A stretch of 64,000 nucleotides of DNA, from contig CAVQNG010000005.1 in NCBI GenBank assembly GCA_963713825.1, forward strand, positions 480,001 through 544,000. Direction: 5' to 3'. This DNA comes from an uncultured Acidobacteriota bacterium. Lineage in GTDB: Bacteria; Acidobacteriota; Thermoanaerobaculia; Multivoradales; JAHEKO01. This document shows, piece after piece, positions 11,023 to 62,882 of this stretch; position 1 is the stretch's first letter; each line of letters starts with the position of its first letter. The position numbers and the translations under genes are program-made. The notes below the pieces were generated by a model that saw only the letters and a list, made by a program, of their open reading frames with translations, was not told the origin of the DNA and did no database searches.

Positions 11023-11047
11023 GTAGGGGAGGGGCTTGCCCCCTCCC
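11023..11047 (+). repeat. GTAG-type REP hairpin (family 1)
   Basis: GTAGGGGAGGGGCTTGCCCCCTCCC; related copies at 28508, 30156, 30415, 31208, 31235 (inverted), 31294, 57863 (inv), 58196 (inv), 58258 (inv). Confidence 0.8.
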
Positions 11048-13802: not shown

Positions 13803-13814
13803 CTTGCACCCCCT

Positions 13815-26081: not shown

Positions 26082-26093
26082 AGGAGGAGAGAG

Positions 26094-31096: not shown

Positions 31097-31448
31097 TATG
31101 CCATACCTCGAAAGTCATTGATTCCGTTGCTATTTGTCAGCCATCACTGGTAGAGATGACGGGAAGTCGATGGAGGTTCTTGCAGACCATCTTGTGCAGG
31201 GCGGAACGTAGAGGAGGGGCTTGCCCCCTCCCACGGGCGCCCGCAAGGGGCGCCCCTACATTTGGCCGTCATGGATGGGAATGGGCGGGGAATGTAGGGG
31301 AGGGCCTTGCGCCCTCCCGGGGTGCCCCCTTGTGATCCCATTCCTTCGGGTGGGTCCGGATCCTGCCCTTTTAGGGCTTGGGTCCAGGGGGTCGGCCGGA
31401 TACCATAGGCGCGGCCTCGGAGTCGAGGCCGTCTCTAGGAGGATTCCA

Positions 31449-32705: not shown

Positions 32706-32816
32706 GGCCTCTCTCCCGATAGAGGATTTCCATTCGGTAGGACTCGGGGTCAGAGATCAGCTGGCCCTTTTCCTTTCTGACGTGACCCGGACTTAAAGCA
32801 AGAAACGCACCCAGTG

Positions 32817-37651: not shown

Positions 37652-37690
37652 AGAACAGGGCAGCAGTCAGGCCAAGTAGCTGTTGGGCCT

Positions 37691-38596
37691 CTACTGGACG
37701 ATCTCGAATCGCTGCACCCGGTTATTTCCCCGATCCGCAACGAACAGGTAGTCGCCACTGGTGGCCAGGCCGGTGGGATAGCGAAGGAAGCCCTCTCTCC
37801 AACCGAGCTGCGACTGGCGACCTTCGAACGAGCCGTTCTGGCCGACGATGACGATGCCGCCGCCGGACTTGTCGGCGAGGTACAGATGCCCCCAGGTATC
37901 CGCGGCGATGGCCGTAGGAAAGGCCATATCTTCTGTCATGGGCTCAGTCACGGCCGCCAAGATCTCATCGTCCTTCGAGGCGGAGAAGACCTGTTTGTTG
38001 CTGGTGTCGATGGCGAAGAGGACGCCTGTCGAGGTGACCGTCAAATCGGAGAGAAATCCGACCTCTGGCGGGAACGCTATCTGACGCACGACGGCGCCTC
38101 CGGGATCCAGGACCACGATCTTGCCTGCAGAGATATTCAGTAGGTAGAGATTGTCGCGGCTGTCGATCGCAAAGCTGCGGAGGATGGTCTCCTCCTGCCG
38201 GGAATCGACCGGTACCTCCACGAAGCTCTTGAACTCACCAGCAGCCGTCAGGCGGGCCAGGCGATGTGACTTACCATCCAGCGCCAGAATCTCCCCTTTT
38301 GAATCGATACCGACCCGGATTGGAAAAGGCACTTGAGCCAGGCGAACTTCGTCCCGCGGCTTGAACCCTTCTTTGAGCTGGTCGAAAATCACCAATCGGC
38401 GATTGCCGGTGTCGGCTACCACCAGAACAGACTTGCCATCGGAAGCTACTCCCTCGGGCTTGTTGAGAGCGGCACCCACTGCGTCGACATAGATCGCGTT
38501 CGTGGGTCGCAGGCGAACCGTTTGCGCGAGCGAGTGCGATGCGGTTACGACGGCCAGCGTCAGAGCTAAGAAGAGAACTCGTTGGTTTCTCGGCAT
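37691..38596 (-). CDS. Secreted NHL-repeat beta-propeller protein
   Basis: Signal peptide; LNKPEGVA..VADTGNRR, FPTAIA, LRYPTGL..VADRGNNRVQ. Confidence 0.85.
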   Translation of the reverse strand: MPRNQRVLFLALTLAVVTASHSLAQTVRLRPTNAIYVDAVGAALNKPEGVASDGKSVLVVADTGNRRLVIFDQLKEGFKPRDEVRLAQVPFPIRVGIDSKGEILALDGKSHRLARLTAAGEFKSFVEVPVDSRQEETILRSFAIDSRDNLYLLNISAGKIVVLDPGGAVVRQIAFPPEVGFLSDLTVTSTGVLFAIDTSNKQVFSASKDDEILAAVTEPMTEDMAFPTAIAADTWGHLYLADKSGGGIVIVGQNGSFEGRQSQLGWREGFLRYPTGLATSGDYLFVADRGNNRVQRFEIVQ

Positions 38597-38603
38597 TACG
38601 GGG

Positions 38604-39863
38604 TTACCTCGCAACCTGCTGGTGGCAGGAAACACAGAGATCGCCTGCGGGATCGAGATGCGACAGAGCTTTGAAAGGCGAGCCATGGGACCGGTGGCAA
38701 CTCAGGCAATCGAGGGTCAGGTTCATGTTGCGCTGGTCCACGATCTCGTCCCCGAGGGGATGGGAGGAGTGCTGGCGCCAATCATGACAGGAGCCACACA
38801 GTTCGTCGACGCTCTCGTAGTCCGACAGAAACACATTGTCCGCCGCGTGGGGTGCATGGCAGGCGCTGCACTCACCATCTTCGACTGGCTGATGTCTCGA
38901 GGCATCCTCTCCCAGATGGGCAGTGCTGTCCTGATGGCAGTTGGCGCACAACTCCTTGCCCGGTGCGATCAGCAATCCCGTTTCATTCGAGGCATGGGGA
39001 TTGTGACAATTCAAGCAGGCGGTCTCGTCGGCAACCGGCCAGTGGAGCCGGTTCTTGTTGAAGGCGGCATTCAAGACATCGCTGTGACAGCCGCGACACA
39101 GCTGTGCGCCTGTCGCTTTCAATTCCAGCGCGTTGGGCGAGGAAGCTTCCAGGTGACACTGGTTGCACATCTTGTTGGTGAGCGGGGCGTGAACCTCGGC
39201 CAGCATGAGGCCCCCGTTGTTCGAGCCGTGCGGATCGTGACAGGAAGAGCAGCGCGAGTCTGCAACTGGATAGCCCATGTGCTGTTGGGAAAACGAGGCC
39301 TGAGTGGTGTTGTGACAGGACTTGCACAGAGCTTCCATATCCTGTTTCAGCAGAGACCCGGCCTTGGTCGAGGCATGAGGGTCGTGGCAAGTGAGGCAAT
39401 TCTGCCGCACTGGAGCGTGCCCGAACTCGCTCTGCTCCACGGTAGCCGCGATCTCCTCGTGGCAGCTGTAGCAGAGTTGATTGCCACCAGCGACCAGGAC
39501 CTTGGGGTTTTGCGAAGCGTGGGGATCGTGGCAGGTAGCACAGTTGCCCTCGAGCACCGCTTGATGGATGCTCACCGCCTCTTCAGGAACGATGTCTGAA
39601 TGACAGGTGGAGCAGATGGTGCTCGCATCGGAGTCCAGCAGCTGGCCGTGCGACGCCGCATGAGGATTGTGGCAATCGGAGCAATCGCCAGCTTTGACTG
39701 GTGTGTGCACGAAGGGCAACTTGATCTGTTCCTGGACCGTGACGTGGCAGTCGAGACAAAGCGCGCCCTTCGCACCCGTCTTCAAACGGTACGGATTCTG
39801 GGAAAAGGCTGCTGCCGGTAGGATCAGCAGGCCGATAAGAACGATCTTCCAGCGTAGGCGCAT
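38604..39863 (-). CDS. 16-heme cytochrome c (paired CxxCH repeat type)
   Basis: Signal peptide MRLRWKIVL; 16 CxxCH counted; HxPV..CxxCHxPHxS repeats. Confidence 0.92.
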   Translation of the reverse strand: MRLRWKIVLIGLLILPAAAFSQNPYRLKTGAKGALCLDCHVTVQEQIKLPFVHTPVKAGDCSDCHNPHAASHGQLLDSDASTICSTCHSDIVPEEAVSIHQAVLEGNCATCHDPHASQNPKVLVAGGNQLCYSCHEEIAATVEQSEFGHAPVRQNCLTCHDPHASTKAGSLLKQDMEALCKSCHNTTQASFSQQHMGYPVADSRCSSCHDPHGSNNGGLMLAEVHAPLTNKMCNQCHLEASSPNALELKATGAQLCRGCHSDVLNAAFNKNRLHWPVADETACLNCHNPHASNETGLLIAPGKELCANCHQDSTAHLGEDASRHQPVEDGECSACHAPHAADNVFLSDYESVDELCGSCHDWRQHSSHPLGDEIVDQRNMNLTLDCLSCHRSHGSPFKALSHLDPAGDLCVSCHQQVAR

Positions 39864-39874
39864 CTCGAGTCCCT

Positions 39875-41845
39875 CTATTCCTGATCGACGAAATGGCAGT
39901 CTTCGCAGGACCTTGCGGCGAAGGGGGCGTGGGCCTCCTCCTTGAACATCTTGGGATCCTGCGAGGAATGGGGAGCATGACAGCTCATGCAATTCATGAC
40001 CCCCGGGTCGATGTATACGTGAGCGTAAGCGAAACTGTCGGATTCCAGATTGTGACACTCACTGCAGAGCGTTGTGGTGTCCTTGCTCAACAGCGGAATC
40101 TGCTCAGAGAAGTGCGGCTCGTGGCACCTCTGACAGTCCCTGGCCGCCGGGTCATGCGCCACTTCCGAGTCCATTCTTGCCTTCAGGTCCTCGTGGCAGG
40201 CGGCACAAAGGTCCGGACCCTGGGCCAGAAGCAGGGCCGAGGATTTCGACTTGTGCGGATTGTGGCACCCGGTGCATTGGCCTGCCGCCAGTGGCTCGTG
40301 TTGGCTGGCGGCTTCCTGCATGCCGTCACCGACATCCGAATGACATTCGATGCAGAGCTCGTCCTCGGCTTTCACGATCATGCCGACTTCGTTACTGGCA
40401 TGGGCGTCGTGACAACCGAGGCAATCCCCGTCTTCGAACGGATAGTGGGTGGTGCCGGCCGTTTCCGGCTTCAGCAGATCCGCATGGCAGTCGGCACAAA
40501 GGGCCGAGCCGGCCTTCTTGAGCAGGCCCGCCTCTTCGGCACCATGCGCCGCATGACAGGCGACACAATCGCCGGTCAGGACCGGTTGATGAACATTGGA
40601 CACCTGGTAGCTGAGCTCGGCGTCTCCGTGACACTCGAAGCAGACTCGATCGGGGCGGTCATTGAGGATGGCCACGGAGTTCGAGCCGTGCGGGTTGTGG
40701 CACGAAGCGCACATCCCGTCGACGTAGGGCATGTGCTCGGCCGCTTGCCCCGTCTCCGGCTCGCCGTGGCAGCTGGAGCAGAGCGCTGCACTTTCCTCGA
40801 CCAGGAGACCTTCATGGGTCGCGGTGTGCGGTGCGTGGCAGGATCGGCAACCATCGCCGTCCGTCAGGGCGGCGTGACTATTGAGAACCTCTTGTCCCTG
40901 CTCCGAGTGGCACTCGACACAGAGCAGATTGCCCTTGCGGGCCAGGAGAGAGGGGCTATCCGCGGCGTGGGGGTCGTGGCAGCCTTCGCACATGCCGGCG
41001 CCGAAGGGCTCATGCATCACAGAGCCCATCTCGGACAATCCGGACTCGTCGTGGCACTGGAAACAGAGGGAGCTACCGCCCTCGGTGAGCTCGAACGGAG
41101 TCGAGGAACCGGCTGCCTCATGGCAGGAGTCACAGGCGGCCTCGGCCACTGGAGCGTGAACGCTGGCCCTGAGTAGGGCGGGTTGAGATGCGGAATGAGG
41201 ATCGTGGCACAGAGCGCAATCGGACGACTCGACAGGATAGCCCTGATGGGATCCTGCAAACCCGGCGTCGTTCGCCTCATGGCAAGAGAGGCACAAGGGG
41301 GTCGCTGCACTCGTCAGGAGATCGGGAAAGTCCGAGCTGTGAGCCTTGTGACACGCACCACACCCCTCGTCTCGCAGCACCTCGTGCACCACTGGCTGTT
41401 CGAAGTCTGCTCTGTCGTGACAGACGAAGCAGGCCTCGGCTCCCGAGGAGCCCAGAAGGTGTTGGCCCTGCGAAGCGTGTGGGTTGTGGCACGAAGTGCA
41501 ATCGGTGCCGCCGAGAAGGGCGGTATGGACATGGGCCTTCTGCAATCCGAGAGACTCCTGGTCATGGCACTCGTAGCAGAGCTGATTGCCTTGCTTCTTC
41601 AATAGCAGCTTGGGCACGAGGCCGTGTCTCAGGTGACAGGTCTCACAGTTACCGTCCTTCATGCCAGGATGCTGGCTCTTCATTCCGCGGTACTGCTGCT
41701 CGAACTCGGCATGGCAGTCGGCGCAGTCTTTCGAGCCCCCCAGCGACCGTCGCTTCTGGGCCAGGGTCGAATCGCTTGCACCCAGTGCCAAGACGGTCCA
41801 GATCAGCAACAGGACACCAAGGCGGGTCGTTCTTTCTCCGTTCAT
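39875..41845 (-). CDS. 26-heme cytochrome c (paired CxxCH repeat type)
   Basis: Signal peptide; 26 CxxCH counted. Confidence 0.92.
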   Translation of the reverse strand: MNGERTTRLGVLLLIWTVLALGASDSTLAQKRRSLGGSKDCADCHAEFEQQYRGMKSQHPGMKDGNCETCHLRHGLVPKLLLKKQGNQLCYECHDQESLGLQKAHVHTALLGGTDCTSCHNPHASQGQHLLGSSGAEACFVCHDRADFEQPVVHEVLRDEGCGACHKAHSSDFPDLLTSAATPLCLSCHEANDAGFAGSHQGYPVESSDCALCHDPHSASQPALLRASVHAPVAEAACDSCHEAAGSSTPFELTEGGSSLCFQCHDESGLSEMGSVMHEPFGAGMCEGCHDPHAADSPSLLARKGNLLCVECHSEQGQEVLNSHAALTDGDGCRSCHAPHTATHEGLLVEESAALCSSCHGEPETGQAAEHMPYVDGMCASCHNPHGSNSVAILNDRPDRVCFECHGDAELSYQVSNVHQPVLTGDCVACHAAHGAEEAGLLKKAGSALCADCHADLLKPETAGTTHYPFEDGDCLGCHDAHASNEVGMIVKAEDELCIECHSDVGDGMQEAASQHEPLAAGQCTGCHNPHKSKSSALLLAQGPDLCAACHEDLKARMDSEVAHDPAARDCQRCHEPHFSEQIPLLSKDTTTLCSECHNLESDSFAYAHVYIDPGVMNCMSCHAPHSSQDPKMFKEEAHAPFAARSCEDCHFVDQE

Positions 41846-43554
41846 GGGTTCTCCTGAGAGTTCAGGCCGAGCAGCTGCTGGAGCCTGTCGTCGGTGACGA
41901 GAATCTCGATGTCAGAGGCCTTGCGCAACTCCTCGGCGTAGCGATCGATCGCTTCCTGTCGCTCTCGTCCAAAGGCCTGTTTGGCAATCTGCTCCCTGAC
42001 CTGATCGAACGACTGTGGAGTGGCTGGGAAGGTCTCCATGATGTGGAGAGCGTAAGAAGGTTTTCCGGGTTCGCCGTAGAAGCGGAAATCACCGGCTGCT
42101 GCGCCAGCGACCGCACTCCGGACTCCGGCGGGTAAACCGGGCACTGCCAACAGACTCCGGTTGAATTGCAGGGTGGGCTGATCGTCACCGGGTGGAATCT
42201 GACCGCTGGCATTCTCGCCCATCCACTGCATGTCCGCGCCCTGTCGCAACTTCTCTAGCGCGGCCTCCGCATCGGCCTTCTCGTAGAAGACCAGGCTGTC
42301 GATACGCATCATCTCGGGTCCGGTGTAGTCGGAGAGATGGTCCTGGTAGTAGGCCTGGAGCTCTTCTTCATCGAGACGGATCTCTGGATTGATCACCCGG
42401 CTGACAAAGGCAGCGAAGATCATGGTTTCTCGCAGGTCCTCGACCGAGGACTGGAATTCGCTCGAATCCAAGATTCCCAGCCTTTCTGCCTCCAGCTCGG
42501 CGGATCTCTCCAGCGTCAGGCGATCGAGAACCCCGAGGACCTCGTCGTTGACCCTCTGCTGCTCGAGGGCTCGCTCCATGCCATGGAAGAGCTCTTGTTC
42601 GATGGTCCTGGTCAGTTCAGCCACCGTGATCGGTTCACCGCCATCGACCTCGGCCAGTACCCTCTGATCGTTGCGAAAGTCCTCCAACCCGGCACTGCCT
42701 GCACTGTCGAAGTCGAGGCTTTCTGCCAGCTCCCGATCCGCGGTGATGTAGCGGCCTCGCATTTCTTCGGTGTAGTCGCGAAGTCGTTCCATCTGACGGA
42801 TTGTCAGGGCCTGACCTTCCGCTTCGGCGCGGGCCTCGGCATCTTCAGGAATGCGAGAGTCGAGCAGCTTCACGACGGCGAGGCCGCCAGTGATCGGAAT
42901 TGGCGCGCTGATTTCTCCTGCTTCCATCTGGGTCAGGGCCTCAGTCACTGAAGGCCACATCTCGGCGGCTTTGAGGTAGTCATCACCCATGGATACCTGC
43001 GCCTTGCCCTGCTGTACCATCCTCTTCGCCTGGGCCTCGAAGTCACCGCCCCCCCGAATGGCCGCCTCGAAGTAACTTGCATCCTCGGCATCCTGGAAGA
43101 GGACAGATTGGACTTTCACTTCGCGAACGGCATCACGATACAGCTGCTGCGCGACTTCCGGATCACCTGTAACGATGTCTTGGACCGCCGCTTGAGCGAT
43201 CCTCTGCCGAAGGAGGTCCAGGCGCCCCTCCTGCAGCCTGTTGATGACCTCTGGCAGCTCGCCCAAGCCGATGGCCTCGGCTTCTTGCATCATGAGTGTG
43301 GAGTTGATCACCCTGTCCAACAGCGCCGCAGCATCGGGGCGCTGGACCTTTTGACTCGCCTCGCCGAGGTCGACGTGGAAAGAGCTGACTTGACGCAGGA
43401 AGTCGTCGAGCGTGATGGGCTCGCCATTGACCCTGGCCAGGGGCTCCTGATCGGGAGCTTCGATCGGCTGAGCCCCGGCCGAGCCAACTGTTGCCGCGCA
43501 ACAGGCGATCGCGCCTAGTATCAGGGGTAGTTTCTTGCGGCTGGCTATTGTCAA
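41842..43554 (-). CDS. SurA/parvulin-like peptidyl-prolyl isomerase chaperone (duplicated domains)
   Basis: LARVNGEPIT and LAEVDGGEPIT, EELQAYY, GEISAPI, SFDQVREQI; TTG start after GGAGG. Confidence 0.8.
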   Translation of the reverse strand: MTIASRKKLPLILGAIACCAATVGSAGAQPIEAPDQEPLARVNGEPITLDDFLRQVSSFHVDLGEASQKVQRPDAAALLDRVINSTLMMQEAEAIGLGELPEVINRLQEGRLDLLRQRIAQAAVQDIVTGDPEVAQQLYRDAVREVKVQSVLFQDAEDASYFEAAIRGGGDFEAQAKRMVQQGKAQVSMGDDYLKAAEMWPSVTEALTQMEAGEISAPIPITGGLAVVKLLDSRIPEDAEARAEAEGQALTIRQMERLRDYTEEMRGRYITADRELAESLDFDSAGSAGLEDFRNDQRVLAEVDGGEPITVAELTRTIEQELFHGMERALEQQRVNDEVLGVLDRLTLERSAELEAERLGILDSSEFQSSVEDLRETMIFAAFVSRVINPEIRLDEEELQAYYQDHLSDYTGPEMMRIDSLVFYEKADAEAALEKLRQGADMQWMGENASGQIPPGDDQPTLQFNRSLLAVPGLPAGVRSAVAGAAAGDFRFYGEPGKPSYALHIMETFPATPQSFDQVREQIAKQAFGRERQEAIDRYAEELRKASDIEILVTDDRLQQLLGLNSQENP

Positions 43555-43719
43555 GATCGATTCCTCCAAACCTCGGGAATTCTGTACCGGATACAGTCTG
43601 TCAGCCATACTCTGTTGGGTAGCTGGCCTAACCACCCTTGCGGGTGGCTCGGCTCGCCGGATGGCGAGCGTAACCGGAGTGTGATTGCTGAGCGGCAGTG
43701 AACATCGCGAATGAGATCC

Positions 43720-44940
43720 CTATTTCGAGACGACGTGGATCAGTGCTCGGCTCATCCGGGATGCCAGATCCTGAGCTGTAGGAATGCTCCGCGCATCGAA
43801 GAAGAACACTCCATCACTGCCTTTGCTGAAGCTGATGGACGACCAGATCGCCTGTTCGGTCCGGGTGTCGACGGCTCGAAAGGAGAAGTCCACGACCGGA
43901 TAGGGAGTTCCGGGGCCCGTTTCGAGGTATCGATCCACCTCGCCGAAGAGTGCGAGATCGGCTTTCATATCGATGCGAAGGATATCGGTGTCGGACGACG
44001 AAGGACCTTCAGTGTAGATCTGGCGCGTCTCCAGGAGCACCTGCCGGACGACGCCCGGTTCGATGATATCAGCTCCCAGCCGGACCAGGTGTCGAATGAC
44101 CTGGTCGGTCAAGATCTCCCCGGCATAGTGTGTCGAGCTGTCGTTGGAAAAAGGGAGCACCGCCACCCGCTCGGCCTGTCTACGAACGTCTGGAAACTCA
44201 GGCGCGGCAAAGTAGACCCTGGGTCGAAAACGGCGGGAGCCCTTGACCCGACCTCTTCCCTTTTGCCTATTGCTGACCGCTTGGGAGGACTCCAAGCCTG
44301 CAAAGGCGTCGGCGAGCTGAGTCGTGACTTTATCCAGGATCTCATCGAAGCCGTTGATGATGCCAAGGCCCAGAAGACCTGGGGATTCGTCTCCGGTTCG
44401 AACTGCGCTGTCCATCCAGAGGATTCTCGGTTCTGCCGCCGTCGTGACGAGTCTGGAGGTGAGGGCCAGCTTGGGAGGGTTGGCTTCCTGGTACAGGTCG
44501 ACAGACGTAATGAGGACCCCCTTGGCGCCGATCTCGGTCTGGAAGGACTGGGCCAGTACTCCATTGATGCCCCCCGTGAAGCGAATCCGGTGCCGGCGCA
44601 TGAAAAGCTCCACGACTTCACGATCGAGGATCTCGTAGCCCCGAAATCCGAGCTTTATGGCGAGCATCGCCTGGATCTTGTCGATCGGGGCTGACCGCCG
44701 ACTCCGATCCCAGATCGGCAGCATGGCGATCGATTCTGCGGAGGGAGCTGCGTAGACTGCCGAAGGCTGCAGGACCGGTCCGGTCTCCGGCCCTCCTTCA
44801 GCCACAGGCTCGATCTGCGCCTGCGTCGGGGCAGCTGGCATGGCACTGGCCACCATTGCCAAGGCCAGGAGCCGCCTGACACTCCGAAGGGTAGGTCTGT
44901 CTCGCAGGGAGCTCATCGAATCCAGGGGTCTATTGCACAA
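43720..44940 (-). CDS. Exported protein with two CsgG/DUF799-like domains
   Basis: IAMLPIWDRS and VAVLPFSNDS domain starts; ADLALFGEVDRY; AIWS. Confidence 0.65.
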   Translation of the reverse strand: MCNRPLDSMSSLRDRPTLRSVRRLLALAMVASAMPAAPTQAQIEPVAEGGPETGPVLQPSAVYAAPSAESIAMLPIWDRSRRSAPIDKIQAMLAIKLGFRGYEILDREVVELFMRRHRIRFTGGINGVLAQSFQTEIGAKGVLITSVDLYQEANPPKLALTSRLVTTAAEPRILWMDSAVRTGDESPGLLGLGIINGFDEILDKVTTQLADAFAGLESSQAVSNRQKGRGRVKGSRRFRPRVYFAAPEFPDVRRQAERVAVLPFSNDSSTHYAGEILTDQVIRHLVRLGADIIEPGVVRQVLLETRQIYTEGPSSSDTDILRIDMKADLALFGEVDRYLETGPGTPYPVVDFSFRAVDTRTEQAIWSSISFSKGSDGVFFFDARSIPTAQDLASRMSRALIHVVSK

Positions 44941-45511
44941 GCTGGTCGATGACCGCCTTGACCGCCTCGGTGGTGACGATGTTCATGGGCTGGCCTCCGC
45001 CTCCGAGGAGTCGCTCCGAGGCGCCGACCCCACCGCGCGAAGCCGAAGCGCTCCAGACGGAGAGACCGGTCTGGCCTTCGAGCATCCTGACGCTGAGCGA
45101 GCATACGGTCGCGGCCGCCACGCCCGAGCGGACTTCGCCGTACTCGAGCACGGTTCCGGTGATCAGAACGTCGGCCTCGAGGTTCTCGGCCAAACGGATG
45201 GCCTCCTCGCTGGTCGGTTCTGTCGGGTTTTCCGGCTGGATTCTCGAGATCGACCTCGCCACTTCACCCGGTGGAATGACATAGACCTCCACGGTGGCTT
45301 GTAGCATCGTCATGAACACGTCGCGGACTCTCTCTCCCGCGTTCCCAGTCGCGGTCAGATCGACGAAGGGCATGACCGCTACCGAACGAACCAGCCCGAA
45401 GTCCATATTGGGGTCGTGGAACGTCGACTGTGCGGCGGGCTGCGATGAGCAGCCCCACAGGCTGATCAGGGCAACGGTCGCTAGGATGAGTGGCAGGATT
45501 CTGTGGTTCAT
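44930..45511 (-). CDS. CsgG/DUF799 (GNA1162-like) lipoprotein
   Basis: Lipobox LWGC; VAVMPF, ADVLITGTVLEY, LSVRMLEGQTGLSVWSAS. Confidence 0.75.
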   Translation of the reverse strand: MNHRILPLILATVALISLWGCSSQPAAQSTFHDPNMDFGLVRSVAVMPFVDLTATGNAGERVRDVFMTMLQATVEVYVIPPGEVARSISRIQPENPTEPTSEEAIRLAENLEADVLITGTVLEYGEVRSGVAAATVCSLSVRMLEGQTGLSVWSASASRGGVGASERLLGGGGQPMNIVTTEAVKAVIDQLVQ

Positions 45512-45551
45512 GGCTAGGCTCCTTCGGCAATCGGGCGCTGTCTGTCTCACC

Positions 45552-47792
45552 CTAGAAGATGATTCTGGTGCCGAATCTCAATATATCGGAGTTGCCGAGC
45601 TCGAACTCCGAATCGGTCTCGGATCGTTGATAGGACGCCTGGATATACCAGCGGCTGGTGATGTTCCACCGGACCCGTGGAGTGAACAGCTTGAAGACCG
45701 TATCGAACTCGGATCGATAGGTCTCGTTGTAGTTGATGCTCAATTGCAGGTTTCCGTTGGGGAACGGCGACCAGCTGACTGCCCAGTCGGTGAATGTCCG
45801 GTCGTCGGTGTCGGTCTCTGTTTGGAGGCGATAACCACCGAATAGATAGACAGCCGGAAATGGAGTAAAGGTCAGGCTGATGCGGCCGAGGCTCTTGTCT
45901 CGATCGCGGCTGCCATCGATATCGCCGCCCTTTTCCTGGTCGTTTCGCAGTAGGTACTGCAGATTCACCGCCAAGGTGCGGTGCGGGATCAGGGTGGCGT
46001 TGGCGTTGACCTGGGTGCCGTCGATCTGGAGTCCGTCTGGTCGCTCAGCAGTGGTCGCACCGACGCCGACATCGACTCGCACACCCTTGTAGAGCTCGGC
46101 GTAGGTTAGCAGGAACAGCGACTTGTCGCTGGTGGAAAGGCCCTCGAACTCACCTTCCGTGCCGCTGAGCCCCTCGAACTCACCTTCCCTGCCGCTGAAC
46201 ACGAGGGTCTGCTGCAGCGTCGGAAGCCAGGCGGCGCGGAGCGATGCCGAATAGGGGTAGGTCGTGCGATCTCCGTTCGATTCTCGCCCATCTTGGCGCG
46301 CGGCGCGCGCAGAGACCGTATAGGTGGGGTTGATCTCCTGGCGAAACGAGAGTCCGTTCGACATTTCCCAGGTGGCTTCGAAATCGTCGGTCTTGCGCGC
46401 GGCATAAGCGAACTCGTAGTAGAAGAACCGGTTTTCCAGCAACTGGGTGCGCAGGCTGGTGTTGAACCGATGGTTGGTTTGAGAGGTCTCCCTCTCGATC
46501 TCGGTGGATGAGGTCCTCTCGAAGGCTTCGAGCTCGGTGACAAAGATGTTGCGAAACTCTCCGGGCAGGGGAGCGGTCAGGTCGAGCGGCCTCACCACGA
46601 CCTTGATGTAGCGTTGGGAGACATCGCCGAAGCGCAGCTCGAAGCGGGGATCCAGGGGACCTCCGAAGGGGGCCCGGGGGATTGTGGCCTGGAAGTCCCA
46701 GCGCCGGTTGTCGATGCTGGTGTAGATATCCCACGTGAAGAAGCCGGCCACCTCTGGCGGCAGCTCGCGATCCACCCATACTCGGAGTGTGTCGACCGTC
46801 TTGGGCGTGTCCAGATCCAGGCCGAGGTTGCGGGGACTGTCGTCACCCCCCGGCGGCGGGAGCCCCAGATCAATCCCGGCTGAAGCTTGCAGATTGCCGT
46901 CGATGAGTGCCGGATTGGGCTCCAAGACTACATTGCTCGGAAACTCGGTGTTGGCGGATAGCCCAGAGAAAGCCGGCACAGGTACGATGACTTCGCCACC
47001 CACGCCTTCCGAGATCGTCGTCAGATTCTGATGGTTGACGTTGTACTCGGCCAGGAAATGCAGACGGTCGCGCCAACGTCGATCGAAATAGGTGACTCGG
47101 CCGGTATTGCTGAAGCGCTCCGTATCGACCTGCTCCAGTTGATCGGCCCTCTGTTCGACGCCGCCGCGGTAGTAGAACTGGAGTGAATCGTAGAGCTCGT
47201 ATTCCATGGTGAGGTCGGCCACGTCCTGGGTGGTATCCTGACGCTCCCTCTGCGAGTCGTAGGCTTTCCTATGCACCAGTCGGAGTCGCCATTCCGGGTA
47301 CCGCTCGGGCGTCCAGCCGAAGACCGCGTCGAAGGTCTCCTGCACTTCTTTCAGCGACAGGCCGGCGGTTTCGACGCGATCGTCGAGGCGTACGTAGCCA
47401 AGGTAGGCGTCGTACAACGGAGTATTGAGTGTCAGTCTCAAGTAGGGTTGAAGCCTCTGCCTTTGGGTGTCTGGTAGGGGGTCTCCACCGCCGGCATCCT
47501 GGCCGTCGTTCTGCTCGAAAAGGCCTCCAACCAGTAGTCGCAGGTTGGGATACAGGGTCCAGTTCACGTTGAGGCTGTAGCGCTGCAACAGGTTGAGTCG
47601 ACGAATGTCGGAGGGGGGAGACCCGACCAGCTGGTCCTGTCTGTTAGACCGGTCGGCTCCCAACTCGACGTAGCCGTCGAGTTGTTGCGCCCGGGGAGCT
47701 GTCTGGCCGACGATGGCTAGCAATATCAACGTCAGGGCTGGCCGCACCAGTCCCCTGGTACCCAAACGAACTGTCAATTGGTGGCGGTTCAC
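45552..47792 (-). CDS. Large outer-membrane beta-barrel with an inserted beta-sandwich-like domain
   Basis: Signal peptide, amphipathic beta-strands, C-terminal LRFGTRIIF; central LIDGN..LGLDL..RYIKVVV insert. Confidence 0.72.
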   Translation of the reverse strand: MNRHQLTVRLGTRGLVRPALTLILLAIVGQTAPRAQQLDGYVELGADRSNRQDQLVGSPPSDIRRLNLLQRYSLNVNWTLYPNLRLLVGGLFEQNDGQDAGGGDPLPDTQRQRLQPYLRLTLNTPLYDAYLGYVRLDDRVETAGLSLKEVQETFDAVFGWTPERYPEWRLRLVHRKAYDSQRERQDTTQDVADLTMEYELYDSLQFYYRGGVEQRADQLEQVDTERFSNTGRVTYFDRRWRDRLHFLAEYNVNHQNLTTISEGVGGEVIVPVPAFSGLSANTEFPSNVVLEPNPALIDGNLQASAGIDLGLPPPGGDDSPRNLGLDLDTPKTVDTLRVWVDRELPPEVAGFFTWDIYTSIDNRRWDFQATIPRAPFGGPLDPRFELRFGDVSQRYIKVVVRPLDLTAPLPGEFRNIFVTELEAFERTSSTEIERETSQTNHRFNTSLRTQLLENRFFYYEFAYAARKTDDFEATWEMSNGLSFRQEINPTYTVSARAARQDGRESNGDRTTYPYSASLRAAWLPTLQQTLVFSGREGEFEGLSGTEGEFEGLSTSDKSLFLLTYAELYKGVRVDVGVGATTAERPDGLQIDGTQVNANATLIPHRTLAVNLQYLLRNDQEKGGDIDGSRDRDKSLGRISLTFTPFPAVYLFGGYRLQTETDTDDRTFTDWAVSWSPFPNGNLQLSINYNETYRSEFDTVFKLFTPRVRWNITSRWYIQASYQRSETDSEFELGNSDILRFGTRIIF

Positions 47793-48072
47793 AGGAGGCT
47801 ATCCATCGAGATCTTCTGAGCGGTGCTGAGACTCCCGGCCCGATCGCAACCGGAGGGGGCCGCTGTCGGGTTGCTTCCAGCTCTCAGAGGGAAGACCACA
47901 ACCCTGAAACTTCAAGGCTATCTTGTCTGCCTGGGCCCTCGATAGCCACATGCCGCGGGGTGGTAGGCGCCCCCCCCCCGCCGGGGTGGCACCTACCCGG
48001 AAAGACCGGAGACGGTGGTCGGTGAGGAGCCTGTGCGCCCAGATTTGGTCACTAGCTCGTTCCCCGCGCCTC

Positions 48073-49476
48073 CTAGTCGCCCGTCAACGCCAGCCAAAAC
48101 GGTGCTGCATCCACAGCGGTGCGTGTCTTGGTGCTCTTGCCTACGACCTCGATGGAGCGGACTTCTCGGAGCTCGGCCAGGACGACGAAGAGGGCGTTCT
48201 GTTCCCCATCGAAGGACAGGAAACTCGGCGTTGCATCGACCGAAATCGAGTCGATCGGCAGCAGGGAAAAGGGATCGAAGATCTCGATCTCGCCAGAACC
48301 CTGGCGACTCAGATAGAGGTAGTCGGTTTGGGGGTTGACCTTCAGAGCTGTCACCCGCGGCCCGACGTAGACCTTGTTTCTGACGACCAGGGTCTCCGGG
48401 TCGACCACGGAGACATAGGGCGAGTGCCGATGGGCGACATAGAGTGAGCCCCCGAGTCGGTCGAGTTGGCCCCAGAAGGGGCCGGGATCGGTGGCGATGG
48501 TGCCGACCAGCGATCGCCGGCTGACATCGATGGCTGTAATGGTGGCGGACCCGGTATTGAAGACGTAGGCTCGCTGTCCGGCGCCATCCATCAGGACGGC
48601 CTCGGGCTGGTCGCCGACCGTGATGCGGTCGGTTTCGACCATGGAGAGCGGATCGATGAAGCTCAGGGTGCGTGAACCGTGATCGGCAGCTAGGAGGGTG
48701 GCTCCGTCGGGGGTGAGGGCCAGGCCCACAGGCTGATCCCCGCCGCGCAGTCGCAGCGTGCTGAGTGAGCGGAACTCCAGCAGCCCGATCTCGAGGACAG
48801 TGTCGTCGCCTGGTAAGGCGACATAGGCTCGGCTTCGTCTCGAGTCCAGGGCGATCGCAGACGGCTCTCTACCGGTAGGAATGACGCCGACCACCCTGCC
48901 AGAGACCTTGTCGAACAGGGTGACGGTGTTGGCCTCGCGATTCGAGACGAGGGCCAGCAGGCCGCTCGCGGGTCGGGGCGGGGTCTGGCTTCGGAAGACT
49001 GGAGTGAAGAGGTCGGTCCCCCTGACCGAGGCCCGCGGGTCGAGTGTCAGGCTGAGGACCGTTGCCTGCTTTCTGTCCACTCGAAAAGGCACTGTAATGG
49101 AAATGGGCTCCGAGGGTGGCGGCAGTGCGATCTTCTCGCCCTGAGATTCGAGGCTGGCGGCCCCGATCGTCATGCTCAGGCCACTGTACTGGCCCGGGGG
49201 GAGCACGGAAGAGGAGAGGGCACGCTGCCGGAGCTGCTCCGCCCCACGAATCTCCCGGAGGAAGATCGGCAGCGTGAAGGTCTCACCAGCGGCATTTCTG
49301 GCCTCGAGCTCGAGGATCCGGAAGTCCAGTTGAGTGGCTTCGGCAACAAAAGGCTCCAGATACAGGTACAGGGCTCCATCGACTTCGAGCGGCCGCGGGG
49401 CAGCCCCGAGCTCAGGGCTGGCGACAGCGCTGAACACAAGACAAACGAGCACTACCGAAATGACTTTGTGACGCAT
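48073..49476 (-). CDS. YncE/YVTN beta-propeller protein with an N-terminal beta-sandwich domain
   Basis: Signal peptide; VSNREANTVTLFD, IPTGREP, ITVGDQP, AYVFNTGSATIT. Confidence 0.8.
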   Translation of the reverse strand: MRHKVISVVLVCLVFSAVASPELGAAPRPLEVDGALYLYLEPFVAEATQLDFRILELEARNAAGETFTLPIFLREIRGAEQLRQRALSSSVLPPGQYSGLSMTIGAASLESQGEKIALPPPSEPISITVPFRVDRKQATVLSLTLDPRASVRGTDLFTPVFRSQTPPRPASGLLALVSNREANTVTLFDKVSGRVVGVIPTGREPSAIALDSRRSRAYVALPGDDTVLEIGLLEFRSLSTLRLRGGDQPVGLALTPDGATLLAADHGSRTLSFIDPLSMVETDRITVGDQPEAVLMDGAGQRAYVFNTGSATITAIDVSRRSLVGTIATDPGPFWGQLDRLGGSLYVAHRHSPYVSVVDPETLVVRNKVYVGPRVTALKVNPQTDYLYLSRQGSGEIEIFDPFSLLPIDSISVDATPSFLSFDGEQNALFVVLAELREVRSIEVVGKSTKTRTAVDAAPFWLALTGD

Positions 49477-49513
49477 CGTCGAATGTTGCTGGTAGGCCCT
49501 TCGAAAAGGCCCA

Positions 49514-50506
49514 CTACCTCTCCTCGGAAAGTTGATCGGCGGGGGTTGGGTCCATCGGAGTCAGACGAAAGACCGCGACGCCCTGGCCCCGGGCTTGGGT
49601 GACGTAGAACTTTCCCTCTTCTCCCATGACGAGGTCTGTAGGGCGGGCCAACAGACGGTCCCTCGCCTTGGAGAATTCGGTCAGGAACCGCAGGGTCTTG
49701 TCGAACACCATCACGACATTGCGGAGCTTGTCGGCGATCAGGATATTGCCGTGGTCGTCGGCGATGATGCCGGAGACAATGCCGAACTTGCCGGGCGCTG
49801 AGCCGGCCATGCCGAACTGTCGCAGCTCACCATCAGGCGACACGACATAGGCCTTGAAATTGGTCGGGATCGTGAAGAGGATGTTCCCCGCGGGGTCGAT
49901 ATCGAGACCGAAGATCTCTTCGCTGGCCGGATCCTCGAGTTTCGCCAGTTGTGCCAGATCATGACTCTGTTGGTAGGCTCCTGATCCATCCACCGTCACC
50001 ACCTGATGTTGACTTCTGCTGGCAAGAGTTACGAGTCCATCTCGATAGAAGAGAGCGTTGGGTCCGAAGTCCTCGAGCTCTGCCGGCAGACCGGTCACTT
50101 CCAGGCGTTCGATCGGGGTGCCGCGATAGTCGCAGCGGGAGAGCCACCACTGCCTTGTCTCGTCCGGTGTCTGGAGCGCTGTTTCCATGGGCTCGTAGGT
50201 TAGAAGCAGAAGGTCGCCCGAGTCCTCGACCACGAGATCGAGGATCTGCCCCAATGCAAGATCGACTTCGAAACGATAGACCTCCATTCCGGTACTACTG
50301 AAGATCCGGACAGAGTTGCCCAGCGAGCCGTAGATTTCATCGCGTTGGCGGTCGATGTGGAGAATGACGTCGCTGTACGGGACCATACCGCTGAAATCGG
50401 AGAGGTTGTAAAGGTAGGCTACCGTGACCTCCGGAGCCCCGGACAGGGCTCCCGAGGCGGCCAGGCCGAGGCAGATTGCGAGTCGAATGGTCGTGGTGAA
50501 GCGCAT
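49514..50506 (-). CDS. Secreted NHL-type beta-propeller protein
   Basis: Start MRFTTTIRL; YLYNLSDFSG; FGMAGSAPGKF, IADKLRNVV, LARPTDL. Confidence 0.8.
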   Translation of the reverse strand: MRFTTTIRLAICLGLAASGALSGAPEVTVAYLYNLSDFSGMVPYSDVILHIDRQRDEIYGSLGNSVRIFSSTGMEVYRFEVDLALGQILDLVVEDSGDLLLLTYEPMETALQTPDETRQWWLSRCDYRGTPIERLEVTGLPAELEDFGPNALFYRDGLVTLASRSQHQVVTVDGSGAYQQSHDLAQLAKLEDPASEEIFGLDIDPAGNILFTIPTNFKAYVVSPDGELRQFGMAGSAPGKFGIVSGIIADDHGNILIADKLRNVVMVFDKTLRFLTEFSKARDRLLARPTDLVMGEEGKFYVTQARGQGVAVFRLTPMDPTPADQLSEER

Positions 50507-50648
50507 CGAGTGCCAGGCACGCCGCTGTCCAGTTCTGCACGAGCGGCGCTGCGGAACTCTACAGGAATCGGCACTCTGGCTCAATTTGGCACGACGTGCT
50601 GGAGTACCACGATCGGGCGCCGATTGGGTATGGGCTCCGAGCGAAGGC

Positions 50649-50681
50649 AAAAAGAGGGGCTGGCTTTTCAGCCAGCCCCTT
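50649..50681 (-). terminator. Rho-independent terminator after the OmcS-like gene
   Basis: On the minus strand AGGGGCTGGCT-GAAA-AGCCAGCCCCT followed by CTTTTT. Confidence 0.8.
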
Positions 50682-50723
50682 CGAGAACTCTGGTTGAGCT
50701 CTACGATCAGTGCACGTGTTCGA

Positions 50724-52016
50724 TTAGTCCTTGAGATGGCACTTGTTGCAGAGCACGCGCTGGTGTCCAGCGAACTCCTGCTGTGGCGGCCGGCCGTAGT
50801 AGGTCGCTGCCATCTGACCGACGGTGTAGCCGCGGTTGAACTGACCCTGGTTGCCGAGGCCAGCGTTGACACCCGGATAGACCGGCGTAGCTGGGTCGCC
50901 GAGGGTCAGGAACTCTGCCTCGCCGTTCCAGCGGAGGATGTACTTCCAACCGCCTGCATGGGCCCGGTGGCAGGTCATGCAATTCATGCGGTCGCCACCA
51001 GCAGGGCCGGTCAGAACAGTACCGTCGTTGTTGGCCAGCGCGGCCAGCGTAGCGATATCCGTCGTGCTGGTCGAGAACGGCACCAGCGAGGTGAAGGAAT
51101 CGGCCACGTTACCCGTCAGGTCACCGGTCTTGACATAGGCGTTGTAGTTGTTGGCTTCGTTGCCCAGAGTGTCATCGACAGGATGGACCGTGCCGCCAGG
51201 AGCGCCTGGAGTGTCGGTGTGCATGCCGGTGTGGCAGGTGGCGCACCACTTGCCCCACGACGCGAACCCTGTGGTACCGCCGTTTGCGAAGCCGTAGGCA
51301 ACGCGAGTCGGATTGGGCGACTCGTTGCGATTGTAGTCGTCAGGCACGACTGCTGCGGGGGCGCCAGGGAAAGCCGCCGGAACGCCAGAGGCCTGGTAGC
51401 CGTTAGCGCCGAGGAGACGGTAGGTGCCGACAGCAGAGCCGGCCGCAGGAATCGCACCGTAGGATCCCGAGTCCACGATCGGCGGGAAGGTCGTGCCGAT
51501 CGTCGGGAAGATGACCGTTCCGGTGGAGTCAATGCGCCCGCCACCATGCGGATCGTGGCAGCTCTGGCAACCGAGCTGGCTGGATGCCATCGTGCCGCCA
51601 GGTGCCGTTAGATTCGTCGTGTCAGCGACGTAGGCGTTGTCGGCAGCGATGATGTTGTGGCCGCGCGTTTCGCCATCGTTGGTGATCGGAGCGTAGTAGG
51701 TAGCGGTGGCGGTGAGATCCTGACGCAGCCAGCCGAAGTCACCACCCGGTGTGCGCTGGACGACGATGTCTGTGTCATTCGTCAGCTCAGCGGCCGGCGT
51801 GCTGATGTGGTAGCGGGTCGGGCCGGTATCGCCCGCGCTCTCGTGGCAGGACAGGCAGGTCGAGCTCTGGTCGGTAGCGACCAACAGGAAGCTCGCGCTC
51901 TCTGCGCTGTGCATGCTGTGGCAACCGGAGCATTCTGCGACGCCGCCATCATGGAAGGCGAGGGCGGGCGCGGCCAGGATCGCTACGGCGGCCAGTAGTA
52001 ACAGGGTTTGTTTCAT
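50724..52016 (-). CDS. omcS: OmcS-family hexaheme extracellular cytochrome (nanowire subunit homologue), 430 aa
   Basis: Signal ending ALA; mature FHDGGVAECSGCHSMH; SSTCLSCH, YHIST, TPGGDFGWL, GHNIIA, TAPGG, CQSCHDPHG, YRLLG, RVAYG, WCATCH, CMTCHRAH, terminal QRVLCNKCHLKD; 6 CxxCH. Confidence 0.9.
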   Translation of the reverse strand: MKQTLLLLAAVAILAAPALAFHDGGVAECSGCHSMHSAESASFLLVATDQSSTCLSCHESAGDTGPTRYHISTPAAELTNDTDIVVQRTPGGDFGWLRQDLTATATYYAPITNDGETRGHNIIAADNAYVADTTNLTAPGGTMASSQLGCQSCHDPHGGGRIDSTGTVIFPTIGTTFPPIVDSGSYGAIPAAGSAVGTYRLLGANGYQASGVPAAFPGAPAAVVPDDYNRNESPNPTRVAYGFANGGTTGFASWGKWCATCHTGMHTDTPGAPGGTVHPVDDTLGNEANNYNAYVKTGDLTGNVADSFTSLVPFSTSTTDIATLAALANNDGTVLTGPAGGDRMNCMTCHRAHAGGWKYILRWNGEAEFLTLGDPATPVYPGVNAGLGNQGQFNRGYTVGQMAATYYGRPPQQEFAGHQRVLCNKCHLKD

Positions 52017-52094
52017 TTCGCTTCTCCTTTGTTGATTAACCGTTCTATAACGGTTGGTTTGTGTAGTTGCAATTCCCATTCGAGGGTCTATACA

Positions 52095-52109
52095 GCAAGG
52101 GGCGTGCCA
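52095..52109 (-). promoter_or_regulatory. Sigma54 (-24/-12) promoter of the omcS-like gene
   Basis: TGGCACG-CCCC-TTGC matches consensus TGGCACG-N4-TTGC, ~80 bp upstream of the ATG. Confidence 0.8.
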
Positions 52110-52292
52110 GGTCGAGGCGCGCAGGGCAGCAGAAGGGCCTCTTGGACAGATAGATAGCTGTGCATGGAAATAAAGTCCCCAATTCCTTCGACTTAGGTCG
52201 CCAAGGCTCTCGATGCCACGCGAGTAGGATCTTGGTGGCGGTGGATTCTGCAGTCGTCTACGGCGGTAAGAGTACGGTCGTCGGGTTCCCTG

Positions 52293-52341
52293 GTGGGGAA
52301 TATTCCCCACTTTGGGGCTGACATTGTGAAATTTTTCACAA
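52293..52341. promoter_or_regulatory. Two 18-bp palindromes: candidate enhancer sites; the second matches the Rex consensus
   Basis: GTGGGGAATATTCCCCAC (52293-52310) and TTGTGAAATTTTTCACAA (52324-52341), centres 31 bp apart. Confidence 0.6.
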
Positions 52342-52438
52342 GCACTGAAGTGAGGACTAGGGCCCAAATAGGGAGGATGCGGATTCGAGTCCGACCGGGT
52401 CAGCCGGGCCCAGAAGGATCGGATCAGAAGAGTTCGAC

Positions 52439-52834
52439 TCAAGCTTGAGGCGGTTTGTCGCTGTTGGCCTGGTGCTCGCTGCAGCGCACGAGTAGCTCGA
52501 GCTGTTCTCGAAGATCGGAGGTATGGTAGGGCTTCTCGATGAAAAAACAGGAGTGATTCAAGGGCCCCAGGCCGGCCTCCTCGGCGCTGCGGAAGACGCA
52601 GGATTCAAACAGCACGGGTATTTTTGGCGAGTGGCCCTGGCAGACGTCCTGGAACTGTCTCCAGGGTAGCCCGTCGGGGCCGATGTTGGCGATCACGGCT
52701 TCGGGAGGTCTGCTTTCGAGCGCCTTCAGTGCGGCGTCGAAGGTCGCGACTTCCTCCAACTCGATCTTCCCATCCAGAATTCTCTGAATCAGGGAAACCA
52801 GAAGATGGCTACCATCCAGAACGAGGAATCGCAT
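52439..52834 (-). CDS. Stand-alone atypical (pseudo)receiver domain protein
   Basis: MRFLVLDG..PEAVIANI..IPVLFES..FIEKPY; Asn at the phospho-Asp position. Confidence 0.7.
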   Translation of the reverse strand: MRFLVLDGSHLLVSLIQRILDGKIELEEVATFDAALKALESRPPEAVIANIGPDGLPWRQFQDVCQGHSPKIPVLFESCVFRSAEEAGLGPLNHSCFFIEKPYHTSDLREQLELLVRCSEHQANSDKPPQA

Positions 52835-52873
52835 AACTCCCTCCCGTGGCGCTAGAGACCTATTGATACTCGT

Positions 52874-52888
52874 GCAAATATCGTTCCA
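52874..52888 (-). promoter_or_regulatory. Second candidate sigma54 promoter
   Basis: TGGAACG-ATAT-TTGC, 40 bp upstream of the 52834 start. Confidence 0.6.
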
Positions 52889-53073
52889 AGGGCTTAGGAA
52901 GCGATGTGGGTGGGCGCAACCCATTGTGACCCTCGTTGAGGGAGCGCTGACTGAGGGATGGAACGCGCGTCAAGAGGGTCTCTGGTTCGGGCAATGGGCC
53001 GAGCCCGGTACCAGGAGTGCTCATTCCCTTGTCGAGCGTGAGCTCGAATACCTCTTTCCGCGGTGGACTGAGG

Positions 53074-59288: not shown

Positions 59289-62882
<3,594 letters not shown>

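Follow-up and report, generated by a model that had tools for sequence, protein, structure and literature searches.

Among hexaheme cytochromes of the OmcS family, polymerisation has been shown only for OmcS of Geobacter sulfurreducens, and the functions of its homologues are given as unknown in section 6 of PMC12977616. In the OmcS filament all 12 axial heme ligands are histidines, and one ligand of heme 5 is donated by the neighbouring subunit (PMC6584659). The associated osc cluster has been assigned roles in folding (OscH), secretion (OscE, OscF and OscG) and filament morphology (OscD), and oscI and oscJ encode periplasmic cytochromes, as summarised in PMC13194489. An eight-gene block of this cluster, GSU2500-GSU2493, always accompanies a GSU2501-like hexaheme (PMC12977616, section 6), and the machinery is titled 'widespread and ancient' by Shen et al. 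(2025), as cited by PMC13194489 and PMC12977616. OmcS homologues are reported from diverse bacteria (PMC10954620), and in 2021 a metagenome-assembled genome (MAG) of Acidobacteriota was described in which OmcS-like hexahemes share a cluster with beta-barrels and periplasmic cytochromes (PMC8528874). Here, we analyse a gene cluster headed by an OmcS-like hexaheme gene on a 64,000-nt stretch of contig CAVQNG010000005.1, which as a whole is called the window below. We consider it probable, with room for doubt, that this is a chromosomal OmcS/osc-type locus of a Thermoanaerobaculia-like acidobacterium, one that most likely makes an extracellular hexaheme cytochrome polymer.

The cluster spans positions 37691-52109 of the window on the minus strand and consists of ten co-directional genes with short intergenic gaps (-4 to 280 nt), and all ten products have signal-like N-termini. 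Its hexaheme gene, the only one in the window, lies at 50724-52016 and encodes a putative filament subunit of 430 amino acids (aa), an OmcS-family c-type cytochrome with six CXXCH motifs and a 20-aa signal-like N-terminus. A ribosome-binding site rated good (AAAGGAGAAG) lies ahead of the open reading frame (ORF). The precursor, of Sec type, begins with MKQTLLLLAAVAILAAPALA, the mature protein starts with FHDGGVAECSGCHSMH, and the C-terminus reads LCNKCHLKD. In a phmmer search against all chains of the Protein Data Bank (PDB), residues 21-430 aligned with residues 1-407 of OmcS (6EF8, chain 6ef8_A, and 6NEF; E=4e-88, 299.5 bits), and nothing else in the PDB matched significantly. This full-length homology, together with the retention of the histidines described below, upholds the OmcS-type assignment made in the initial annotation of this DNA.

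The conservation of the heme ligands was assessed in a family of 102 proteins. A scan of GTDB with one genome per species matched at least 658 stretches, at least 557 of which code for a relative; the best 80 yielded 78 loci, and the 101 copies found in these loci entered the alignment and tree together with the window protein. By the titles of their records, 31 of the loci belong to Acidobacteriota, 16 to Nitrospirota, 14 to Thermodesulfobacteriota and 6 to Myxococcota; 5 are unassigned, and six other phyla contribute one locus each. The cysteines and histidine of each CXXCH motif are kept in 100-102 of the 102 members, as are exactly six further histidines, whereas the figure is only 80-82 for two others. 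In mature numbering these six are H2, H137 and H258 (102/102 each), H100 and H333 (101/102 each) and H16 (100/102). Six motifs and six further conserved histidines are thus the right number for six bis-His hemes, and the six would act as distal heme ligands by comparison with OmcS (PMC6584659). The window protein has a histidine at mature position 16, as the initial annotation had stated, and so do OscC-like paralogues; the residue is missing only from two extra paralogues, L058_4147 and L074_10001. In the 2019 work of Wang and colleagues, the residue donated between OmcS subunits is said to be His16. Its conservation in the window protein is confirmed, but being near universal in the family it does not tell one kind of member from another.

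Structure prediction bears on the fold rather than on the assembly. The AlphaFold2 (AF2) model of the hexaheme, based on a 35-sequence alignment, is of low confidence (predicted local distance difference test, pLDDT, 56.9; predicted TM-score, pTM, 0.64), perhaps because it was built without hemes, and because of the low pLDDT no residue-level geometry was taken from it. When this model was compared with the PDB by Foldseek, 6ef8_A was the sole match at E<=0.001 (E=2.4e-21, TM-scores 0.69/0.72, 42% identity). Hence, the hexaheme is predicted to have the OmcS fold, albeit from a low-confidence model. A two-copy complex prediction of the mature protein with 4 hemes scored 0.01 against a mark of 0.42 and neither supports nor opposes polymerisation.

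The nine genes that follow on the same strand resemble the osc companions. All eight gene types of the osc block are present, in the order YVTN propeller, barrel, two lipoprotein-like proteins, peptidyl-prolyl isomerase (PPIase), two cytochromes and NHL propeller, and the gene order of the window family matches the published GSU2500-GSU2493 block and the cited Osc roles. Osc letters are given to the window genes by position, following the mapping in PMC13194489 and PMC12977616. Searching the 78 loci with the ten window proteins by tblastn showed the colinear, same-strand series from hexaheme over YVTN, barrel, OscF-like lipoprotein and OscG-like protein to PPIase in 35 of the 49 loci with at least 9 kb of downstream sequence. 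The other 14 are either devoid of the block (five loci: L032, L038, L039, L055, L072) or rearranged or partial (nine loci), and a YVTN gene is found in 62 of the 69 loci with at least 1.8 kb downstream. As the genome of G. sulfurreducens PCA lies outside the 78 loci, two Geobacteraceae loci serve as its stand-ins. In one of them (L058) the block is colinear with identities of 35% (YVTN), 27% (barrel), 44% (OscF-like), 31% (OscG-like) and 29% (PPIase), and in the other, from Geotalea (L074), the tail is colinear at 32% (PPIase), 49% (26-heme cytochrome), 47% (16-heme cytochrome) and 38% (NHL). The terminal NHL gene follows both cytochromes in the same order in Geotalea and also in L030, L035, L037 and L041. 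An osc-like companion cluster, proposed initially from gene types alone, is thereby borne out in type and order by loci of many phyla, Geobacteraceae included.

The individual genes agree with this assignment to different degrees. Next to the hexaheme gene, an NHL-like beta-propeller with a signal peptide (NHL1, 49514-50506, minus strand, as are all genes of the cluster) has a partial match to NCBIfam scyF_NHL (E=5.7e-11) and no Pfam match. NHL1 has homologues in 63 of the 78 loci; in 53 loci the homologue lies on the upstream side of the hexaheme, and in 5 it separates the hexaheme from the YVTN gene. The gene follows the hexaheme in the window and in L011, L014, L028, L067 and L075, and precedes it in the closest relatives, L061 (8671-9700) and L003; its position in the window is a local rearrangement. 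The OscD-like gene (48073-49476) encodes a 467-aa YVTN beta-propeller (TIGR02276, E=1.5e-24; PF21783). At the OscE-like position lies a 746-aa outer-membrane beta-barrel (45552-47792), recognised at the cut-off by PF13505 (E=1.6e-6, residues 569-733). It belongs to no curated family, the proteins that resemble it in the atlas (scores of 0.99) are about 713-731 aa long and unnamed, and colinear homologues occur in related loci; a sub-threshold F5/8-type-C-like hint in its middle domain (E=0.063) was not used. Towards the end of the cluster, the OscH-like gene (41842-43608) encodes a 588-aa chaperone with SurA-N and parvulin-type PPIase domains (PF13145, E=9.3e-21; PF13623, PF13624, PF00639). 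It is followed by a 26-heme c-type cytochrome of 656 aa (OscI-like, 39875-41845; 26 CXXCH, Paired_CXXCH_1 E=9.6e-137 in 13 stretches), a 16-heme c-type cytochrome of 419 aa counted from MRLRWK (OscJ-like, 38604-39863; 16 CXXCH, Paired_CXXCH_1 E=5.2e-87) and a 301-aa NHL-repeat beta-propeller (OscK-like, 37691-38596; PF01436, E=3.4e-19). Thus, all nine downstream genes listed initially are present on the same strand, while the NHL label of the first lacks a Pfam match and the CsgG/DUF799 labels of two others fall below the cut-off of PF05643.

These two genes encode candidate export proteins. The OscF-like product (44930-45511) is a small, GNA1162-like lipoprotein of 193 aa with the lipobox LWGC (PF05643 E=1e-4, below cut-off) and has homologues in the loci at 40-67% identity. 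The OscG-like product (43720-44916), a two-domain periplasmic protein of 398 aa resembling PelC, GNA1162 and CsgG, is likewise below the PF05643 cut-off and was classified by AF2 and Foldseek. Its model (pLDDT 83.3, pTM 0.80) contains two tandem alpha/beta domains, each of which matches PelC of G. metallireducens (5T0Z) and the dodecamers 5T10 and 5T11 at E~1e-8 with target TM-scores (TMt) of 0.68-0.79. Further matches are the PelBC exporter 9H80, GNA1162 (4HRV, 4.4e-7), CsgG (4uv2, 8.4e-5) and the TolB N-domain, CsgG and the TolB N-domain being more distant than PelC, and atlas look-alikes belong to the GNA1162, FlgO, CsgG and LpoB families at 0.92-0.97. The OscG-like protein is thus predicted to contain an alpha/beta domain superposable on PelC and GNA1162. 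ORF extraction gave a longer OscG-like gene of about 670 aa in L061 (15360-17378) and L003 (9459-11486), as against 398 aa in the window, which could reflect an extra domain or a start-codon artefact.

The initial annotation had also given the hexaheme gene its own sigma-54 promoter and terminator, and both hold. The promoter match (-24/-12), TGGCACGCCCCTTGCT, lies at 52094-52109 on the minus strand, 78 nt upstream of the hexaheme ATG. With TGGCAC-N5-TTGCT it is the sole exact match to TGGCAC-N5-TTGCW within the window, and this exactness, its position and a neighbouring sigma-54 activator gene are the grounds for the call. Counted with up to one mismatch, sigma-54-type sites in the window are not above chance (3 observed versus 1.88 expected; at least 3 in 29 of 100 shuffles). 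GG/GC sites with the right spacing and a match of at least 8/11 occur upstream of 31 of 100 homologues versus 6 of 100 antisense controls, and a chance origin of the promoter match was set aside on its exactness, its position, the adjacent activator and this enrichment. Right after the hexaheme stop, an intrinsic terminator (50655-50680, minus strand) combines an 11-bp stem with 8 GC pairs, a 4-nt loop and a T-run; its hairpin is the strongest such site in 37400-53000.

Whether the hexaheme corresponds to OmcS itself or to one of its paralogues depends on the family tree, in which three separate groups are joined by branches without support (value 6). The Geobacterales OmcS clade, together with Myxococcota copies, forms one group, the OscC-like clade (SH-aLRT 100) with three Nitrospirota copies the second, and a clade of 63 rows (SH-aLRT 100) that holds the window protein and neither of the Geobacterales OmcS and OscC-like clades the third. 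The approximately unbiased (AU) test rejects the OmcS and OscC-like clades as exclusive sisters (p=0.0036), although the group was named after the tree had been seen, which weakens the test. Because of its separate 63-row clade and the AU test, the window hexaheme is a strict orthologue of neither OmcS (GSU2504) nor OscC. Its identity to OmcS-clade proteins is about 42-45%, with 45% to the OmcS-clade copy and 41% to the OscC-like copy of the Geobacteraceae locus L058. In that locus, a 315-aa ORF with four CXXCH motifs (11466-12413) lies between the OmcS-clade and OscC-like genes and has no counterpart in the window.

Two features lean towards the window hexaheme as the OmcS-equivalent. First, its C-terminus ends three residues past the last heme histidine as CXXCH-x-K-D-stop, as do the Geobacterales OmcS clade and 87 of the 102 members in all, whereas 6/6 members of the OscC-like clade have CXXCH plus five different residues (e.g., ...SSGTK or ...GGALP) instead of x-K-D. 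Second, in three Nitrospirota loci with both a window-clade and an OscC-like copy (L063, L069, L071), the window-clade copy lies upstream, which is the omcS position in Geobacterales loci. A loop of about 18 alignment columns after His16 distinguishes Geobacterales copies from Acidobacteriota copies, which are without it. More than one hexaheme is present in 20 of the 78 loci; in the Nitrospirota locus L046 (6724-16428), six OmcS-family copies stand in tandem, two of them nearly identical.

By another explanation, the hexaheme would be a non-polymerising cytochrome of the outer surface or periplasm, as OmcT and the OscC/GSU2501 paralogues may be, and the block would be a general export and anchoring system or a trans-envelope electron conduit rather than machinery for assembling filaments. 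The position of the window protein outside the OmcS clade and the failure of His16 to tell the paralogues apart would fit this view, as would the restriction of known wire formation to OmcS (PMC12977616, section 6), and porin-cytochrome conduits, as described in PMC8528874, likewise pair a barrel with multihaem cytochromes. However, the whole fold, the 12 ligand positions and the OmcS-type C-terminus are all retained, the window-clade copy occupies the upstream, omcS-like position in the three Nitrospirota loci, and a strong promoter and a terminator around one small structural gene fit a subunit made in excess. We regard a non-polymerising cytochrome as unlikely, though it deserves to be taken seriously.

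A less probable alternative concerns regulation. Upstream of the cluster lies a gene for an NtrC-type sigma-54 activator with receiver, AAA+ and helix-turn-helix domains (53860-55226, minus strand), which compared with its intact orthologue in the Thermoanaerobaculia MAG L061 (L061:6345-7736) carries two frameshifts. The alignment of the orthologue to the window passes through frames -1 (87% identity), -2 (62%) and -3 (71%), and the breaks fall near 55129-55140 and 54678-54683. A sensor histidine kinase with an AtoS/ZraS-type core (NCBIfam, E=1e-65) is paired with it (55261-56913, minus strand). The order kinase, activator, hexaheme is found in 25 of the 78 loci from several phyla (e.g., L015, L019, L025, L045, L061), a count to be read with the short upstream DNA of many other loci in mind. 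Between regulator and hexaheme, a 161-aa protein without a Pfam or NCBIfam match (p161; 52439-52924, minus strand) belongs to no known family and has homologues at the same place only in the Thermoanaerobaculia loci L061 (45%) and L003 (52%).

With the activator frameshifted, expression may be lost or rely on another activator, and the cluster could accordingly be silent or decaying here, its dedicated activator a pseudogene and its sigma-54 promoter unable to fire. Since reading frames are unbroken in the ten cluster genes, in the PFOR gene of 3.6 kb and in the genes for hydrogenase and Hyp proteins, the two breaks within one 1.4-kb gene have the look of genuine decay and not of chance errors in assembly; the full-length, single-frame matches of the cluster genes, PFOR, HypF and the hydrogenase genes imply that random assembly indels are not frequent here. 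Yet none of the ten structural genes is broken and no heme motif has been lost, the frameshifts might nevertheless stem from local errors of assembly, other sigma-54 activators could serve the promoter, and the genes past the terminator need their own promoter anyway. A silent or decaying cluster is thus quite improbable in our view.

The identity of the host bears on a further point. The PFOR protein (59289-62882) is 96% identical to a protein of a 'Thermoanaerobaculia bacterium', and its next named matches, at about 70%, are mostly from Thermoanaerobaculia or Acidobacteria, with one from Phycisphaeraceae. In the tree, the window hexaheme lies in a clade of seven rows (SH-aLRT 100) made up of Polarisedimenticolia, Thermoanaerobaculia and unclassified Acidobacteriota MAGs. 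Synteny with L061 reaches beyond the cluster, as this MAG shares PFOR, a DHOD-like gene, kinase, activator and p161 followed by the cluster, and the GC content of the cluster (0.59-0.63) equals that of the rest of the window. Given this evidence from PFOR, the seven-row clade, the L061 context and GC, the cluster is resident and the host is an acidobacterium, probably of the Thermoanaerobaculia, and not Geobacter, in accordance with the initial placement outside that genus. As the best identity to the species-representative collection is 64%, that collection does not contain the species of the window. A recent horizontal import from Desulfuromonadota, that is, Geobacter-related DNA in another host, finds some backing in the scatter of phylum labels on the hexaheme tree (23 changes against a minimum of 9, so transfers do occur in the family), but it is highly improbable and was rejected, because every protein of the cluster has its nearest relatives in Acidobacteriota loci, the hexaheme falls within the seven-row Acidobacteriota clade, the flanking genes from PFOR to p161 are syntenic with L061 and the GC content is like that of the rest of the window.

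We return to the OmcS/osc-type locus that makes an extracellular hexaheme polymer. In such a locus, the hexaheme subunit would be exported to the periplasm and then loaded with heme, and the SurA-like PPIase would hold it in an assembly-competent state. Passage through the outer membrane might proceed via the 746-aa barrel, on which the PelC/CsgG-like lipoprotein pair would form a cap, by analogy with the PelC ring that feeds the PelB barrel. Subunits would then stack head to tail, His16 of one ligating heme 5 of the next, with the YVTN propeller modulating the form of the filament, and the 26- and 16-heme cytochromes could pass electrons across the periplasm to its base. Histidine kinase and NtrC-type activator would drive the sigma-54 promoter, and the terminator behind the subunit gene would leave the subunit in excess over the machinery.

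Several observations weigh against this reading. Filaments have so far been seen for no member of the window clade, and the hexaheme lies outside the Geobacterales OmcS clade as well as the OscC-like one. Its 299.5 bits against 6EF8 fall below those of both Geobacteraceae paralogues, the copy far from the YVTN gene reaching 537 and the copy adjoining it 434. His16 is conserved in paralogues of unknown function and so does not discriminate, the predicted fold comes from a model with a pLDDT of only 56.9, and the sigma-54 activator is twice frameshifted while its neighbours, including the 3.6-kb PFOR gene, read through. In more general terms, PMC12977616 cautions that true nanowire subunits of other genera cannot be recognised by their sequence, and the physiological role of OmcS filaments is disputed in PMC11077965. 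The initial claim that this organism builds conductive cytochrome filaments was therefore too strong: filament formation by the window hexaheme is something that we infer, for a protein that is about 42-45% identical to OmcS-clade proteins, falls in a different clade and has a frameshifted activator.

The claim of novelty fares no better. A protein search at the level of 90% clusters gave 1403 proteins at E<=1e-10 among 8000 candidates scored, with Polarisedimenticolia, Acidobacteriota and Sulfotelmatobacter among the named matches, and an exhaustive search of 50%-identity representatives gave 551, 349 and 158 proteins at E<=1e-3, E<=1e-10 and E<=1e-30, respectively. With these numbers, the at least 557 relatives in the GTDB scan, the Acidobacteriota hexahemes of 2021 (PMC8528874) and an osc machinery called widespread in 2025, the locus is a further example of a published, widely distributed system, of which clusters outside Geobacter have already been described. 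What it adds is a complete, regulated and well-resolved OmcS/osc example from Thermoanaerobaculia-like Acidobacteriota, organisms that are abundant in sediments and whose one cultured relative reduces oxides of Fe and Mn (PMC8528874). If the hexaheme polymerises, Acidobacteriota could plausibly pass electrons to metal oxides or to other species through cytochrome nanowires. The kinase/sigma-54 module, the PelC-like OscG fold and the C-terminal signature that sets OscC-like paralogues apart could guide experiments on export and induction.

Tentatively, the 63-row clade might be extended to a broader proposal, namely a third, mainly Acidobacteriota and Nitrospirota lineage of the OmcS family, composed of single-copy filament formers with PelBC-like export and a dedicated kinase/sigma-54 module that travels across phyla. 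We see this as possible but doubtful. If true, most of the diversity of OmcS-type nanowires, and possibly their ancestral form, would reside in soil and sediment Acidobacteriota and Nitrospirota and not in Geobacter, and the regulator would offer a handle on the signal that induces nanowires in nature.

The remaining genes of the window include several with links to the cluster or to redox metabolism. Bordering the cluster, a 1034-aa fused MFS/spermidine-synthase-like/TPR protein (32814-35918, plus strand) has a homologue in 16 of the 78 loci (L015, L016, L019, L020, L023, L025, L027, L067, L075, L078 and others); in Vicinamibacteria-type loci, this recurrent companion is found within the cluster, flanked by the two lipoprotein-like genes. 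Convergent with the last cluster gene is that of a 578-aa protein (35915-37651, plus strand), hydrophobic in its N-terminal half and with TPR repeats at the C-terminus, which has weak homologues (24-34%) near the cluster in nine loci. Two genes past the cluster, a fusion of a ChaN-type haem-binding domain (PF04187, E=3e-56) with PDZ (31221-32705, plus strand) is possibly involved in haem handling. In a second multihaem module at 25146-27842 (plus strand), a decaheme cytochrome of the GSU2203 family (E=2.7e-103) precedes a CXXCH (seleno)protein of the GSU2204 family (E=2.1e-135). Genes for a Hyb-type NiFe hydrogenase (small subunit, HybA, cytochrome b subunit and large subunit) with hypD, hypE and hypF occupy 4065-16229 (minus strand), so that an uptake-type NiFe hydrogenase is found within 25 kb of the cytochrome cluster. 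Together, the hydrogenase and the second multihaem module suggest a chain from H2 to an extracellular acceptor. An ORF at 2970-4061 (minus strand) matches, short of the family cut-off, the domain of REP-associated tyrosine transposases (E=5.8e-16), and Rfam and tRNA scans of the whole window returned nothing, which leaves no RNA marker for taxonomy.

Among known systems, the closest is OmcS of G. sulfurreducens (6EF8/6NEF) with its osc cluster (GSU2504-GSU2493). The window protein shares with OmcS full-length homology, six hemes, the same 12 ligand positions including His16, the N-terminal pattern FH.GGVAEC.GCH.MH and the C-terminal pattern LCNKCH.KD. The downstream gene types recur in the same order, judged by the Geobacteraceae loci L058 and L074 as proxies, and a histidine kinase gene is found near both clusters, GSU2507, numbered next to the omcS region, being a sensor kinase (PMC11077965). 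Unlike OmcS/osc, the window has an Acidobacteriota host and a single hexaheme of about 42% identity in a separate clade, without OmcT or OscC-like paralogues. It further differs from Geobacterales in the absence of the post-His16 loop and in the position of the first NHL gene, which lies between subunit gene and YVTN gene and not upstream. The OscC/GSU2501-like hexahemes resemble the window gene in lying directly upstream of the conserved block, in their six hemes and in keeping His16, but they form their own clade (SH-aLRT 100) and end in CXXCH plus five residues.

Within the same phylum, the MAG AM4 of 'Ca. Polarisedimenticola svalbardensis' likewise combines cytochromes with six heme sites with periplasmic cytochrome and beta-barrel neighbours, and a role in metal-oxide reduction was proposed for them (Flieder et al. 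2021, PMC8528874). For this MAG, two such cytochromes are reported, and the sections of that paper devoted to them describe no osc block, regulators or filament features. For export, the nearest likeness is the PelB-PelC system (5T0Z, 5T10, 5T11, 9H80), as the OscG-like domains of the window are predicted to share the PelC/GNA1162 fold and the OscG-like gene has as neighbours the genes of a large barrel and of a small lipoprotein that belongs to the same family. Compared with PelB-PelC, the domains are 16-19% identical in sequence and come as two in tandem per chain, and a polymer of folded haem protein would take the place of the polysaccharide as cargo.

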